Assembly: GCA_040387015.1 (NCBI GenBank)
Contig: JAZKEP010000044.1
Location: 1-62,807, forward strand
Source of the DNA: Bacteroidota bacterium
Lineage (GTDB): Bacteria > Bacteroidota > Bacteroidia > Chitinophagales > LD1
Direction: 5' to 3'
Length of the DNA: 62,807 nucleotides
Shown here: positions 4,590-52,461 of the stretch, in pieces
How the letters are laid out: each line of letters begins with the position of its first letter
Numbering within the stretch: the stretch's first letter is position 1
Notes under the pieces: model-generated
Told to the model about the DNA's origin: nothing
The model's input: only the letters and a program-made list of their open reading frames with translations
Database searches by the model: none
Made by a program: the position numbers and the translations under genes

Positions 4590-5183
4590 CTACCCCGAAC
4601 AGCCGTCTTGCTTCGGCAAAAACTCCCTTATCTTTTCAACAAAAGGCAAATACAATTCTTCATGTTTAGATAGAAAATCCTTAATTAGATTTTTTAGTTT
4701 ATCTAGATCAACCGTATACTTCCCTTCCTCTTCCACTAAATAGGACTCAACATCGATTTTAAACAACTCATCAAACGCATTACTTGCCGTAAGAAGTGAA
4801 AAGTGATCTTTTACATGTTGGTATAGAGACTTTGAGTCTAGTGCTTTCATTCTTAATGTAGCCCAATTATCCAAATCTTTCCCGCCACCATTATTTGAAG
4901 AAAAACAGGTTTCAAAATCTTTTTTTAAAAAAATCGCTTCAACGAAACAGCCATAAGGTATTACAGCCAGTTTTTCTGCTATACTCACTACCGGCTTGTC
5001 GGGTTCTTCTCCCTCTGGTATTAAAGGAATAGTTGCTCCATCGTAATCTCTCCAAGGATGTTTGGATGGATAAATAACGATTTCCTTAGTTGCCCCCATG
5101 ACCCCAAAATTCTTAAGGTTTAGTTCACGAGCTATTAGGTGACCAAGTTCATGAAAGAAAACTGTTTTTACAGCAGGATGCAT
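4590..5183 (-). CDS. hypothetical protein with N-terminal HExxH (HELGH) zinc-peptidase-like motif
   Basis: 197-aa ORF. FFHELGHLIAREL lies at residues 9-21 and the remainder has no recognisable motif. AT-rich. Confidence 0.45.
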   Translation of the reverse strand: MHPAVKTVFFHELGHLIARELNLKNFGVMGATKEIVIYPSKHPWRDYDGATIPLIPEGEEPDKPVVSIAEKLAVIPYGCFVEAIFLKKDFETCFSSNNGGGKDLDNWATLRMKALDSKSLYQHVKDHFSLLTASNAFDELFKIDVESYLVEEEGKYTVDLDKLKNLIKDFLSKHEELYLPFVEKIREFLPKQDGCSG

Positions 5184-32753: not shown

Positions 32754-33719
32754 TTAATTGTGCGCTGCTTTCCAGGGCATAGGAGTAGCATTCGGATTAT
32801 ACACATTCAACAGAGGCCGCGGAATATCGTAGCCTGCTGCCACTGCAATTACCTCCGCTGTGTCGCCTGGTGTTACACTTATTTGTATGGTGCTGGGGCC
32901 CGGGCTGCCGCCTTCGGTATCGCTGAAAAAGAAAATGATGGGACCTCCGCTGGGCGCCAGGTTGGTTAACAACAGATTGGTATCAGCCTGTATATCTTCT
33001 TCATCAAAAGGAATATTTACCCCCGTGCCCATGCCCACCGTTCCGGTAAGCACGTTGGTATCGGTTCCGCTTCCGCCCCCGCTGTTATCTATTGCCCGCG
33101 CCTGCAGATAAAGCAGGAACAACTCATTGTCCACCGCTTCAAAAGTAAGCATGTAAATATCCAGTTGATCGAGCAGCAAATCAGTTTGCTGAAACAGCTC
33201 ATCCACTTCCACACCCGACACCACTTTTTCGCCACGCTTTTCGGCAGGCAATTGTATCACATCAAAAAATGCGACCAGCGCATCGTTCAGTGCCGTTACA
33301 TCGGCAGGGCCACTGTTAAAACCGCTCAGGCTGGCCTGCACCACCAGCGCTTTCTTGTAAAGGTATTTTGCCTTTACATACAAATCGTTATCGCGCGAAC
33401 CTTCAAGATCGCTCTTAATATAGTCGGCCAGTTTTATGCTGCCCAAACTGCCAATGCTCAAAAAATAAGCGGCAGCAGCGCGGCTTACTTTCAGGGTTAT
33501 TACTTCTAAATCAACGCGCTCCTGCGCTTTTTCATCGGTGAAACCCGTGGTGTCGCTGGTGGCAACACCCGCTTCATCTACAATGGCCTCTATGTTATCG
33601 TCCAGCTCGGTTTTTATACCCGCAATTTGAGTTACCCCTGCCAGCTCGGTGGCTTTGGTATCCAGAAAAGAAGCGACCTTTTCAAACATGCCTAATTTAT
33701 CTTCCTGTTCATCTGTCAT
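32754..33719 (-). CDS. orphan hypothetical protein, helical N-terminal two thirds and Gly/Thr-rich beta-like C-terminal domain (start at MTDEQEDK preferred over the track start 33815)
   Basis: Long clean ORF with ordinary amino acid composition, no signal peptide and no recognised motif. Antisense ORFs in the track are shorter and low complexity. Confidence 0.6.
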   Translation of the reverse strand: MTDEQEDKLGMFEKVASFLDTKATELAGVTQIAGIKTELDDNIEAIVDEAGVATSDTTGFTDEKAQERVDLEVITLKVSRAAAAYFLSIGSLGSIKLADYIKSDLEGSRDNDLYVKAKYLYKKALVVQASLSGFNSGPADVTALNDALVAFFDVIQLPAEKRGEKVVSGVEVDELFQQTDLLLDQLDIYMLTFEAVDNELFLLYLQARAIDNSGGGSGTDTNVLTGTVGMGTGVNIPFDEEDIQADTNLLLTNLAPSGGPIIFFFSDTEGGSPGPSTIQISVTPGDTAEVIAVAAGYDIPRPLLNVYNPNATPMPWKAAHN

Positions 33720-33813
33720 GGTATGTGTGTTTTTAAATGATGAAATAATTTGATGACACAAATGAAAACACTTGCTGCCCTTCGCGCAATAGCAAAAGCC
33801 CCTTCCAAAGGGC

Positions 33814-34004
33814 ATATAGGCTGTTTCGTTACAGCTATAGGAAATTAAGTGAATGGTATAGGCTGTTTACCTACATGTTTCGGCCGTTCCATTAAACGTT
33901 CAGGCTGTTTCGTAGCCTATATAGGCAATTTAGTTACAGCCATCGGCTGTTTCGTAACGCTTATAGGAAATTTAATTACAACTATAGGTTGTTTCGAATA
34001 TGAA
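33814..34004. repeat. array C: 9 head-to-tail 20-22 bp units, two alternating subtypes (42-bp superperiod)
   Basis: ATAGGCTGTTTCGTTACAGCT-type units (33816, 33858, 33901, 33942, 33984) alternate with ATAGGAAATTTAATTACAACT-type units (33837, 33963; intermediate forms at 33879 and 33921). Located in the divergent intergenic region between 33719(-) and 34068(+). Confidence 0.85.
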
Positions 34005-34067
34005 AATATCGTCACGTCTTCCGCAATTCGCACTGCAATGAATTTTATAACCTAAAATCAAAACAGT

Positions 34068-34469
34068 ATGCTGGCATTCAACTTACGAAACGTTTTAAAG
34101 ATGAAAGGAATTGACGAACCTTATCCCTGGCTACGCAAGCGCGCTATCAGCGATGATATTATCAAGCGCTATTTAAGCGGCAAGGTGGTAAAGGTGGATA
34201 TGCGCCACCTCGAAATTTTTTGCTACGACCTTAATCTGCGGCCCAACGACTTTTTTATCTGGCAGCCTGACAGGCATACCCGCGATATTGAAAATCACGC
34301 GCTGCAGGAAATTCGCAGCGATCAGCCACTGCCCGATGTGGACAGCATTGCTAAAAAACTTTCAACCAAATCGCTGCGCAAGCTGGAAGAAGCCGCGCGC
34401 AAAATTGCCGAAGAGGAAATTGAAGAACGCAAAAAGAACATTGAGGCGAAGAAGAAAGGGAAGAAGTAG
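34068..34469 (+). CDS. XRE-like helix-turn-helix protein with charged C-terminal coiled coil
   Basis: LRNVLKMKGI...ISDDIIKRYLSG...LEIFCYDLNLRPNDFFIWQP, then KLEEAARKIAEEEIEERKKNIEAKKKGKK. Same architecture as 7309..7671. Confidence 0.55.
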   Translation: MLAFNLRNVLKMKGIDEPYPWLRKRAISDDIIKRYLSGKVVKVDMRHLEIFCYDLNLRPNDFFIWQPDRHTRDIENHALQEIRSDQPLPDVDSIAKKLSTKSLRKLEEAARKIAEEEIEERKKNIEAKKKGKK

Positions 34470-34682: not shown

Positions 34683-35489
34683 TTATTTCGTACCCGAAAC
34701 AATGAAGCAGGAATAGGAAGCAAAAAATTTGTCGTTTTTCAAATCCTGTTTCAGCACTTCCCACCAGGCAGCTATTTCGTTGGCAGTAAAAACGCCTTCG
34801 GAAACACCTGTTTGCAACACCCCCTCACAAATTTTTTTGGTTACATCCAGTTGGCGGTCGGTATAACTGAAGGGTTTCACTTTTACATCCTTAAAACCAT
34901 TGTCTTTTAAATAATGAAACAGCTCACCACCTACCCGCCCGCTGGGGAAACTGTCAGAAACATAGCGCACAATTTTTCGTGTCAGTGCTTTATCGGTATG
35001 GGCAATCATCATGGCATCCCAGTCGGTGTCGAACACCACCAGCCTGCCTCCCGGTTTCAGCAGTCGCTTAAATTCGGTAAACGCAGCAGCCGTATCTTTA
35101 ATATACATCAGCACCCTTTCGGTGCGCAGGCAATCGAAACTCTCACTTACAAAAGGCTGATGAACCGCATCGGCCACCATAAACTTTAGCGGCAGGCCCG
35201 AAGTTGCCGTGCTGTTTTGCGCAATATCAATCATGGCGGTGCTCAAATCGGTGCCGGTTACCATTCCTGTTTTACCCACCAGCGCGGCCATCTCTTTTGC
35301 CTGCACACCAATGCCGCAACCAATATCGAGCACCTGGTCGCCTTCGTGTATCTCGAGCAGGCCGAGTTGTATCTCAAAACTTTCGCGCACATGCTGCCGC
35401 TTGCTCACCTCCTCCAGAAAGTTTTTCAGAAACTCGGGTTGCGTATTGTCAACGTTTAAAAATCCGCTGATGATGTTTTGCTTTTCCAT
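34683..35489 (-). CDS. class I SAM-dependent methyltransferase
   Basis: Motif I VLDIGCGIGVQ. 268 aa. Confidence 0.75.
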   Translation of the reverse strand: MEKQNIISGFLNVDNTQPEFLKNFLEEVSKRQHVRESFEIQLGLLEIHEGDQVLDIGCGIGVQAKEMAALVGKTGMVTGTDLSTAMIDIAQNSTATSGLPLKFMVADAVHQPFVSESFDCLRTERVLMYIKDTAAAFTEFKRLLKPGGRLVVFDTDWDAMMIAHTDKALTRKIVRYVSDSFPSGRVGGELFHYLKDNGFKDVKVKPFSYTDRQLDVTKKICEGVLQTGVSEGVFTANEIAAWWEVLKQDLKNDKFFASYSCFIVSGTK

Positions 35490-35518
35490 TTTCAGTTTAC
35501 TATAGTAAAGATAGATTG

Positions 35519-36358
35519 CTAATTAAATAGATTGGTTTGACCTCCATCATCATTCAAATATTTAAACTGCTCAGGATCTCTTACATCTTGTATCCCTCCA
35601 TACTTATTAACGGTTTCTCTCACAATATTGATTGAGCCATTTAAATCTTCCTCAATATCCTTACTTGTAAAACGAAGCACTGACCAGCCCTGGCTTTCGA
35701 GAAGATTATTTCTCTGCTTATCATTTCTTACAGCAGTTGAATCCATATGGTAAAAGTCACCATCAGTTTCGATATTGATATTTTTATTCTTACAGAATAC
35801 AGCAAAGTCAAGAAAGAAATTTCTACTGCTAACCGAAATAAAATACTCGCGTTCAGCGTATATATTACGTTTCAGCATTTCATTCCAAAATCTATCACCT
35901 AATGAACTATTGTTGAAAAGGAAGTTTAGCTCTTTCGAGCCAAAAAATTTTTCTTCTGTGGTAGGAATAAATAAAACTCTTCTTGGTCTTAAACTGATAA
36001 TGGGAATTGGCAGTTGCATTAATGTTTTAAACTCGACTTTGAAATATTCGTTTTCTGTTTTCGCATTTCTAACTTCTTTTGGAAACAACTCACTCCTTTT
36101 AACAACAGATATTTTTCTTATCTCGCCAAACCACTGAATGGTAAATTTTTCCTTTTCAAACTCGCTTGTATGATAGAATGATATCAACTTAGCCTTTCCT
36201 TCTTTGATAATTGGAGGTGCGTTTTTTACAGGTATTCGGTACCATAACTTTTCTTGAGCAATCAGAAAATCTTTTTGATTGTTCATTAAGGCAACAAGAA
36301 CATTGTTTTGAGGCTTAGCCAAAACAGATAGATTTATAAACAAAAGTAAAAGAAGCAT
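35519..36358 (-). CDS. DUF559/Vsr-like (PD-(D/E)xK fold) endonuclease domain fused to an uncharacterised N-terminal domain
   Basis: C-terminus FFLDFAVFCKNKNINIETDGDFYH...RNDKQRNNLLESQGWSVLRF fits the DUF559 pattern. N-terminal 170 aa contains QEKLWYRIPVK. Alternative start at 36286. AT-rich. Confidence 0.6.
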   Translation of the reverse strand: MLLLLLFINLSVLAKPQNNVLVALMNNQKDFLIAQEKLWYRIPVKNAPPIIKEGKAKLISFYHTSEFEKEKFTIQWFGEIRKISVVKRSELFPKEVRNAKTENEYFKVEFKTLMQLPIPIISLRPRRVLFIPTTEEKFFGSKELNFLFNNSSLGDRFWNEMLKRNIYAEREYFISVSSRNFFLDFAVFCKNKNINIETDGDFYHMDSTAVRNDKQRNNLLESQGWSVLRFTSKDIEEDLNGSINIVRETVNKYGGIQDVRDPEQFKYLNDDGGQTNLFN

Positions 36359-51583: not shown

Positions 51584-51705
51584 AAGAGGGCGCGAAGGTA
51601 GTGCTAGATTTTGATAATTACAGGATAGCCGTCAGAAATTGTGTAAAACATCAGGTTCTTGTTTTAGAAGACCATTTTGTATTTTTGGTGGAAAGGAAAA
51701 GTCCT

Positions 51706-52461
51706 ATGTCAGAAACAACAAATTTCCAGTTGGCTTTAGATAACGGTCATTTAAACCGAATTATAGCCCTACTGATTGAGCAAAATGATGGTTTGAAGAA
51801 GGAAAATGAGTGGTTGAAAATGCATATAGGGCTGAAAGAGCAAGGTATGCCCGATGCGCAAATACATGAGGCGTTTACAGCGTTCTGGAAGTCCCACATG
51901 CAAACTAATGTAGGACTAACCGAAGCTAGACAATCCTATGTGCAAATGCATGTAGGGCTTACTGAGCTTAGTCAATCCAACCCACAAATGCGTGTAGGGC
52001 ATCCTGAATTTAATCAATCCCACATGCAAACTGATGTAGGGCAAACCGAAGTTAGACAACCCTACGTGCAAATGCAGGTAGGATTATCTAAGCAGAGTTT
52101 ACCTACCACGCAAATGCATGTGGGGCAAACCACAGAAAATAGCCCACTTCCGGCAGTTATTCAGCCGGACAGCCAGTTAATTTCGGCCCTGGTTAAAACT
52201 CTTAAAGAGGCCGGCTTTAAACATGCGGAGGTTTCTACAGTGCGCAACGCTGCCACGTTGATGTTTCATTTCTATAACAAGGGCGGGGGAAGTTATCAGG
52301 AATTGAAAAAAATAACGAACCTTTCTATGGGCGGCCTAAGCAAGTTCATGACCTCCTTTAGAAGAAGAGGATTGATAAAGCGCTATGCGTTTCAAAAATT
52401 TGAGCTTACACCGCATGGCCTAAACCTGCTGCAGCAGGCGTATAGTAAAGTGAAAAAATAA
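51706..52461 (+). CDS. repeat-containing DNA-binding-like protein: N-terminal zipper, 14-aa tandem repeats, C-terminal winged-helix-like domain
   Basis: LIEQNDGLKKENEWLK, then 6-8 repeats of the ..QM.VG.TE..QS type, then SYQELKKITNLSMGGLSKFMTSFRRRGLIKR. The track start (GTG 51601) is less likely than ATG 51706. Confidence 0.5.
   Translation: MSETTNFQLALDNGHLNRIIALLIEQNDGLKKENEWLKMHIGLKEQGMPDAQIHEAFTAFWKSHMQTNVGLTEARQSYVQMHVGLTELSQSNPQMRVGHPEFNQSHMQTDVGQTEVRQPYVQMQVGLSKQSLPTTQMHVGQTTENSPLPAVIQPDSQLISALVKTLKEAGFKHAEVSTVRNAATLMFHFYNKGGGSYQELKKITNLSMGGLSKFMTSFRRRGLIKRYAFQKFELTPHGLNLLQQAYSKVKK
51811..52145 (+). repeat. array D: 8 units of 42 bp (2 x 21), inside the ORF above
   Basis: Unit boundaries at 51811, 51853, 51895, 51937, 51979, 52021, 52063 and 52104. 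Core is CAAA(C/T)..ATGTAGGGC ... AGACAATCC. Confidence 0.8.

Follow-up and report, generated by a model that had tools for sequence, protein, structure and literature searches.

The window is the whole stretch of 62,807 nucleotides of Bacteroidota DNA that was analysed, and the genome to which it belongs (G000) is a draft of 3.84 Mb, which the public names of homologues place among uncultured Chitinophagales. The locus of interest comprises an array of direct repeats, named array C, and the genes around it: a gene of a protein family which we call family X, a regulator gene of the HTH_26 family, a methyltransferase gene, and a gene for a DUF559 protein. The X gene and the HTH gene are divergently oriented and are separated by a spacer of 348 bp (33720–34067), the middle of which is occupied by array C. 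The features are the following:

32754–33719, minus strand: family X gene, 321 aa, divergent, on the opposite side of array C from the HTH gene
33720–33814, minus strand: X-proximal control region with CTATTGC at 33786–33792 (X-sense, −33-like) and TCATTTG at 33759–33765 (−7-like)
33815–34003, plus strand: array C, nine direct 21-bp units, with orthologous nine-unit arrays at the equivalent position in relatives
34004–34067, plus strand: HTH-proximal control region with the conserved TTTTATAACCTAAA at 34043–34056
34068–34469, plus strand: XRE/Cro-C1-type regulator, 133 aa, HTH_26, CylR2-like, the proposed reader of array C

The start of the X gene is likely the ATG at 33719 and not at 33815. 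Between the HTH gene and ybeY the window holds a SAM methyltransferase gene and a DUF559/MTES_1575 endonuclease-like gene (34683–36358). Other genes are found here instead in each relative, so that this is a variable spot beside a conserved module.

Read directly from the sequence, array C extends from 33815/33816 to 34003/34004 and consists of nine units in exact 21-bp register. The units are, in order, TATAGGCTGTTTCGTTACAGC, TATAGGAAATTAAGTGAATGG and TATAGGCTGTTTACCTACATG (units 1–3), TTTCGGCCGTTCCATTAAACG, TTCAGGCTGTTTCGTAGCCTA and TATAGGCAATTTAGTTACAGC (units 4–6) and CATCGGCTGTTTCGTAACGCT, TATAGGAAATTTAATTACAAC and TATAGGTTGTTTCGAATATGA (units 7–9). An earlier reading made from the sequence only had described nine phased 21-bp units which alternate with a 42-bp period, and the phasing could be confirmed. 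The segment score of the spacer is 29.4 at a lag of 21 and 52 at a lag of 42, compared with a maximum of 16.8 in 500 shuffles over all lags from 10 to 44, and the scores at lags 10, 11, 20, 22, 31, and 32 are at most 9. Likewise, a position weight matrix (PWM) built from the units matches nine times, at 33815, 33836, and so on to 33983, with every step exactly 21 bp. Tandem Repeats Finder (TRF) reports a period of 21 bp with 8.7 copies (33815–33996, 55% matches) and in a second row a period of 42 bp with 2.3 copies (33902–33996, 81%). The odd units are of the GGCTGTTT(CG) type and units 2, 6, and 8 of the GGAAATT/GGCAATTT type. As unit 4 is intermediate, the 42-bp alternation is real but imperfect. 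On the strand in sense of the HTH gene the conserved core reads GG(C)TGTTT(CG). Units 6–7 and 8–9 are probably a recent 42-bp duplication, judged from their sequence identity of 81%; apart from this the array is old and degenerate, as only 55% of the positions match at the 21-bp period.

The resemblance to a further repeat array, array A, that had been pointed out before is found at the level of the short core, which reads GCAGTTTGCGG in array A and GCTGTTTCG in array C when both are taken in sense of the HTH gene. Between the 120-aa HTH protein of array A and the family of the 133-aa protein no homology was detectable outside the helix-turn-helix (hhalign probability 1.3%). When the 3.84 Mb were scanned with the PWM, clusters of the array C motif were found at only two places, array C itself and positions 4936–5099 of contig C266. 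This excludes REP/BIME elements, a MITE or a dispersed satellite. The C266 array is the sole other array of the genome with this motif and has eight units, TAGGCTGTTTCGTAGC; its contig stops about 70 bp beyond. A join of C266 with contig C174, which has an HTH gene at its end, was considered and is doubtful, as the two contigs do not overlap and the orthologues of the C174 HTH gene carry a different, AGTTTG-type array.

On both sides of array C conserved boxes point outwards. The CTATTGC and TCATTTG boxes on the X side are kept in the spacers of the loci L031, L038, L035, L032, and L033, and TTTTATAACCTAAA on the HTH side is kept in L031, L038, L032, L035, and L036. By comparison with the published −33/−7 promoter consensus of Bacteroidota, in which TCATTTG corresponds to the TAnnTTTG type, the outward-pointing boxes are the predicted core promoters of the X gene and of the HTH gene. 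Array C stops about 25 bp short of the −33-like box of X on the one side and 64 bp short of the ATG of the HTH gene on the other, and would thus fill the room between two divergent promoters and overlap neither of them. A sigma-54 promoter ahead of X was rejected because the spacing from GG to GC is inconsistent among the orthologues.

The 133-aa protein matches Pfam HTH_26 (PF13443) with residues 6–68 (24.0 bits, cut-off 22). It is composed of a CylR2-like HTH domain (residues 1–67) and a charged C-terminal helix (residues 100–131). The AF2 model has a pLDDT of 86–94 across residues 1–60 and places helices at 6–12, 18–23, 29–36, 45–55, and 59–62 with flanking beta strands; the helix-turn-helix of the model is formed by helices 18–23 and 29–36. 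Foldseek retrieves SaPI2 Stl, 3bs3, and CylR2 with a probability of 1.0 and an rmsd of 2.1–3.0 Å, and the profile search against the PDB finds Stl (7.7e-5). By profile and fold the nearest solved relatives are therefore SaPI2 Stl, CylR2, and an XRE protein of Bacteroides fragilis. In an alignment of 357 cluster representatives at 50% identity the scaffold and the family motif H.E..C..LNCTPNDL..W.PD....HPLQ are conserved, and the most variable residues of the HTH domain are 29–31 and 33, that is, the start of the recognition helix. This hypervariability parallels the diversity of the unit cores described below. No match to the protein was found by tblastn in 72,556 plasmids or in 50,697 phages.

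Family X has about 37–46 members in the genome (roughly 40). For the X protein of the window Pfam, PHROGs, and NCBIfam give no family. The AF2 model (pLDDT 86) consists of an N-terminal bundle of long helices followed by a C-terminal jelly-roll, for which Foldseek against PDB and BFVD finds generic jelly-roll matches only; the long-helix N-terminal domain is novel. Among the paralogues in the genome the C-terminal beta domains are interchangeable, with a jelly-roll here and CarboxypepD_reg in others, and they have no signal peptide. The family is as strongly linked to 21-bp arrays as the HTH genes are, which had been overlooked in the sequence-only reading. DNA with a 21-bp period precedes about 24 of 37 X genes (roughly two thirds of the family), and all 17 TRF arrays that adjoin an X gene lie upstream of it. 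Most of the array-bearing X genes have no HTH gene of the 133-aa family nearby; genes found beside them comprise those of LytTR and NarL response regulators and of a different HTH family.

The module of X gene, array, and HTH gene is conserved across related uncultured Chitinophagales. It is found beside ybeY and a conserved gene of 647 aa in at least four related genomes (G022, G018, G041, and G008), in synteny with the window, with identities of 80–87% for the 647-aa gene, 52–61% for X, and 37–57% for the HTH protein. These modules are vertical orthologues of a fast-evolving locus. Thirteen distinct modules were recovered in genomes of the same genus, and the genome of the window itself has three: array C, C44:107.3–109.0 kb, and C163:18.2–19.9 kb. 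The arrangement is thus chromosomal and recurs, both in synteny across several species and as several modules per genome, as had been proposed. In the orthologous spacers the number of units is about nine (9, 9, 9, 9, 9–11, 7–9 ...), the distance from the array to the ATG of X is ~95 bp and that to the ATG of the HTH gene ~65–100 bp. The orthologous unit core is G-rich-N-(G/A)TTT on the strand in sense of the HTH gene, and the remaining ~13 positions of each unit are free. In more distant paralogous modules the architecture is kept, usually with nine units, each lineage has a core of ~8 bp of its own, and the cores are unrelated (ACCTCC, TATTCATT, TTACCGGTT..CAT, AGCGCGTTTC, and TTTTCCTTCCGGC).

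The close pair G041 and G053 allows a comparison of the arrays at short distance. Their arrays are 60% identical, which is about the neutral level as given by the dS of the neighbouring genes (0.41–0.56). Even so, the 189 bp are practically free of indels and the columns of the core are kept. This pattern points to selection on the spacing and on a short core, and this is what a phased protein-binding array predicts. In most of the units several core columns have changed in concert between the two genomes, TTTACAC to TTTATAC and GCG to AGG, and the recognition helices differ at 5 of 11 residues (residues 28–33 read PSRSAI in the G041 type and SRDCAL in the G053 type), a co-variation of helix and core that is confounded by common descent. 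At the same pair of loci, L033 (G041:C17) and L034 (G053:C158), the dS is 0.12 for X, 0.56 for the adjacent HTH gene, and 0.41 for the next gene. The anomalously conserved X gene could reflect a recent exchange or conversion of X alone.

The link between the HTH family and the arrays extends beyond the orthologous locus. A segment with a 21-bp period lies in the 500 bp ahead of ten of the 16 HTH_26 genes in the genome, compared with 39 of 746 random genes (~5%), which corresponds to an odds ratio of 30 (p = 2.9e-9). The proposed association of arrays with HTH genes is borne out by this enrichment. All four paralogues of the 133-aa protein in this genome for which upstream DNA is available carry a 21-bp array, as do 22 of the 33 homologue loci in the genus. 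A near-complete genome from another family of the order (G027, GC 35%) has four copies of the HTH gene, and the three homologues sampled all have an array directly upstream, against a background of about seven arrays per 360 kb, or about one per 50 kb; in addition, two X-like genes follow arrays in this genome. Homologues in three further lineages have arrays of 10–12 units which end 30–58 bp before the ATG, and no X gene is present. A widespread single-copy subfamily of the HTH proteins has short or weak arrays only. The orthologues of the C174 HTH protein belong to this subfamily (L071, L074, L018, and related loci) and are preceded by short (A)GTTTG-type runs at 21-bp spacing; TTTG is also a promoter motif of Bacteroidota. 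For the closest homologue of the 133-aa protein (86% identity) the contig begins 21 bp before the gene and the array is lost.

Array C is also a member of a much larger class. TRF finds 184 arrays with a period of 21, 42, 63, or 84 bp in the genome, of which 177 are non-coding; these ~177 arrays, which mostly do not lie beside HTH genes, had likewise been overlooked before. Sorted by period, the TRF rows of the 3.84-Mb draft number 210 at 21 bp, 119 at 42 bp, and 6–7 at 20 or 22 bp, with almost nothing at 10/11 and 31/32 bp. The lag analysis finds a 21-bp period in 142 of the 981 spacers that are 150 bp or longer, and among the spacers of 350–800 bp the share is 23–35%. All configurations of spacers contain arrays, 41 of which lie between convergent genes, and only about a fifth of the ~177 adjoin HTH_26 or X genes. 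Thus, array C belongs to a genome-wide, non-coding class of 21/42-bp arrays with locus-specific units, and most of this class is unexplained. Since 21/42-bp arrays are found in G027 as well, the phenomenon extends beyond the genus. A literature search for 21-bp arrays in Bacteroidota or Chitinophagales found none.

Two further kinds of locus with such arrays were noticed. A family of 126-aa HTH proteins with an excisionase/MerR-like N-terminus has 21/42-bp arrays directly downstream, and not upstream, of the gene (C130:11306–11686, C174:4074–4451, C36:38315–38695, and C6:59309–59749). In the window, the open reading frame 51601–52461 contains a 42/126-bp array (51892–52127) in frame, and its C-terminus is a winged HTH similar to HTH_45; paralogues on C132, C216, C143, and C35 have an array just upstream or in frame. 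Either this array encodes a repeat of 14 aa (xQMxVGxxExxQSx) or it represents a further module of gene plus array. Thirteen arrays of the genome touch contig ends, and the HTH genes on C174 and L107 (JAWVHG010133203.1) lie 7 and 21 bp from the contig end. The arrays break short-read assemblies, and the array counts given here are therefore lower bounds.

Taken together, we suggest that array C serves the adjacent 133-aa HTH_26 protein as an operator with many sites on one face of the DNA that are bound cooperatively. The protein would control its own gene and the X gene, and we regard this as a reasonably likely reading. It starts from what is observed, namely the array with its phase and conservation, its association with HTH genes of this family and the strong variability of the recognition helix. 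In addition, a transcriptional operator is suggested by the place of the array, precisely between the two predicted promoters, which diverge. From these observations we infer binding and its stoichiometry, and the regulation may be either repression or activation. Each 21-bp unit would present one core of ~8 bp (GGCTGTTT), and since the units are two helical turns apart all cores would lie on one face of the DNA. The protein is probably dimeric through the conserved W.PD..HPLQ region and the C-terminal helix, and the dimers would bind the units cooperatively, with one subunit reading the core and the other contacting the DNA non-specifically, as proposed for the C repressor of phage P2. The result would be a nucleoprotein assembly of roughly fixed size (nine units, about 189 bp) which fills the space between the promoters and may control both of them, the HTH gene's own and that of the X gene.

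The P2 C repressor (PDB 2XCJ) is an XRE-type dimer which binds cooperatively to 8-bp direct repeats 22 bp apart (PMC2995052). One subunit has been proposed to read the sequence, and only part of each footprint of ~21 bp is specific (PMC2995052), in agreement with the ~8-bp core in each 21-bp unit of array C. Array C resembles the P2 operators O1 and O2 in that the gene of a small XRE-type protein lies beside non-palindromic direct repeats of ~8 bp whose centres are two turns apart. In P2, however, there are two repeats which overlap the −10 region of one promoter, whereas the nine units of array C, or up to 12 in its relatives, lie between two divergent promoters and leave the core boxes free. 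Moreover, the nearest sequence and fold matches of the 133-aa protein in the PDB are SaPI2 Stl and CylR2, and array C is chromosomal and not part of a phage. Multimerisation of small HTH proteins on direct repeats, as we propose it for the 133-aa protein, is also seen for BldC of Streptomyces and for StbA on stbS of R388. On direct repeats of varying number BldC assembles head to tail along one face of the DNA, which it distorts (PMC5859096). BldC is, however, MerR-like and binds 2–4 repeats of 9 bp without spacers, and the StbA repeats of 9 bp have a period of 11 bp, compared with nine units at a period of 21 bp in array C. Within the genome-wide class of 21-bp arrays, one sub-class is tied to HTH_26 and family X, with a conserved number of units and with evidence for co-variation of recognition helix and core.

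Since long arrays of phased repeats here accompany small DNA-binding proteins, a likeness to plasmid iterons and centromere-like sites had been suggested. Iterons are found in the γ origin of R6K (7 × 22 bp) and in pSC101, RK2, P1, and F, where they are bound by Rep initiators, and type II centromeres comprise parC of R1 (10 × 11 bp) and the 20-bp repeats of pSK41; further centromeres are sopC of F with its binding protein SopB and tubC with TubR. When ParR coats parC, a ring or superhelix whose size is defined is formed, and the promoter is repressed. As regards geometry the likeness stands: array C and its relatives, with 5–12 direct repeats at a period of ~20–22 bp beside a small DNA-binding gene whose promoter region they overlap, are close to R6K, pSC101, and the parC sites of R1 and pSK41. 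Like iterons, which come in 5–9 copies about two turns apart, array C combines a conserved core with a free spacer and lies beside the putatively autoregulated gene of its putative binder; like parC, it is a phased array upstream of the operon of the putative binder. The fixed length of about nine units suggests a complex of defined size, as with ParR. A function of array C as an origin or a partition centromere that has come to lie in the chromosome, with the HTH protein as a Rep-like or a ParR/ParB-like adaptor, is nevertheless very improbable. No Rep, ParA, ParM, or TubZ gene was found at the locus with Pfam, PHROGs, and NCBIfam; in particular a winged-helix Rep is absent, and nothing hints at an origin context. 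Whereas ParR, which is of the ribbon-helix-helix type, works with the ParM motor, the locus has no NTPase and is not on a plasmid, and the X protein is modelled as a helical bundle with a jelly-roll. The site is a chromosomal one, syntenic with ybeY and the 647-aa gene in four other genomes. At least four HTH–array modules are present in the genome of the window, and not one per replicon, and the tblastn search described above gave no plasmid or phage relatives. The earlier reading was thus partly right: a phased candidate binding array is tied to a small HTH gene and recurs on the chromosome, and the plasmid analogy seems to be wrong as a statement on function.

The operator reading has to be weighed against three more explanations. 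The array could be mainly an upstream element of X, which is read by another protein or acts through intrinsic curvature, so that the HTH gene merely shares the spacer. Candidate readers would be a regulator encoded at another place, the X protein, or else a nucleoid protein or a general binder of arrays, and curvature is conceivable since a bend in each unit that is repeated every two turns adds up. As many X genes have arrays upstream and no HTH gene nearby, array C could indeed belong to the control of X by another factor; the strict upstream position of the arrays beside X, the X-like genes that follow arrays in G027 and the start of the array ~25 bp upstream of the −33-like box, a position suited for an activator or an UP-like element, fit with this. 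However, homologues of the HTH gene carry arrays in several lineages where X is absent. Each module has specific core sequences of its own, which speaks against both a general reader and curvature alone, and a recognition helix as variable as this one would suit a dedicated reader that is encoded in cis. We hold this explanation to be possible, at a rather low probability. Still less probable is a neutral or selfish minisatellite which arose by lineage-specific, sequence-blind tandem duplication of 21 bp and is functionless here. The genome-wide periods of 21, 42, 63, and 84 bp with almost nothing at 10/11 or 31/32 bp, the contigs that break at arrays and the apparent recent duplication of units 6–7 and 8–9 (81%) would be in line with such a process, and since ~80% of the ~177 arrays lie beside neither family and 41 are between convergent genes a sequence-blind cause of the 21-bp quantum may exist. 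On the contrary, syntenic orthologues with protein identities of no more than 44–61% share the register, the number of about nine units, the position and the core of this old and degenerate array, the arrays of G041 and G053 have diverged to the neutral level with essentially no indels, and arrays are strongly enriched beside two specific gene families.

It is also hardly to be expected that array C acts as RNA, as tandem hairpins in a 5′ leader or as an sRNA. The array folds better than shuffled sequences on both strands (z = −3.0 and −2.3), which is due to ACAGC-N5-GCTGT dyads with one compensated pair (ACAAC/GTTGT). However, z is ~0 in four of six orthologous arrays (L038, L036, L035, and L032) and negative only in array C and in that of one relative, the only match in Rfam is ssnA with 16.8 bits against 37.3 (E = 0.31), and the conserved boxes that resemble promoters flank the array and face away from it.

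The operator reading of array C may be part of a wider picture, which we put forward as a tentative proposal with a low probability of being correct: a chromosomal "array-reader" system of this Chitinophagales lineage with well over 100 arrays per genome, each with a private core, whose fast-diversifying small readers form particles of fixed size that gate the members of family X. The recognition helices of the HTH_26 proteins and of other readers would co-evolve with their arrays, the reader would polymerise into a particle of nine units and about 189 bp, perhaps one closed turn, and one regulator would address one paralogue of the 40-gene family X. If the 21-bp quantum were the footprint of one reader dimer, this would explain why the length of the unit is fixed and its sequence free. 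The addressing of one paralogue by one regulator would, if true, be without a described counterpart.

For practical purposes the arrays matter in that they break short-read assemblies, and several contigs stop immediately at an array. Should the 133-aa protein indeed coat the nine-unit array of 189 bp, array C would stand out among bacterial operators by its large size and its fixed stoichiometry, with an ordinary XRE fold as the building block. Naturally occurring variants of specificity, residues 29–33 of the helix on the one hand and the unit core on the other, are already paired in the genomes and offer a system for studying the co-evolution of HTH proteins and their sites. If the proposal is true, the 133-aa protein would be the first concrete reader for a part of the unexplained genome-wide 21-bp arrays in uncultured Bacteroidota and would provide a handle on the 40-member protein family X.
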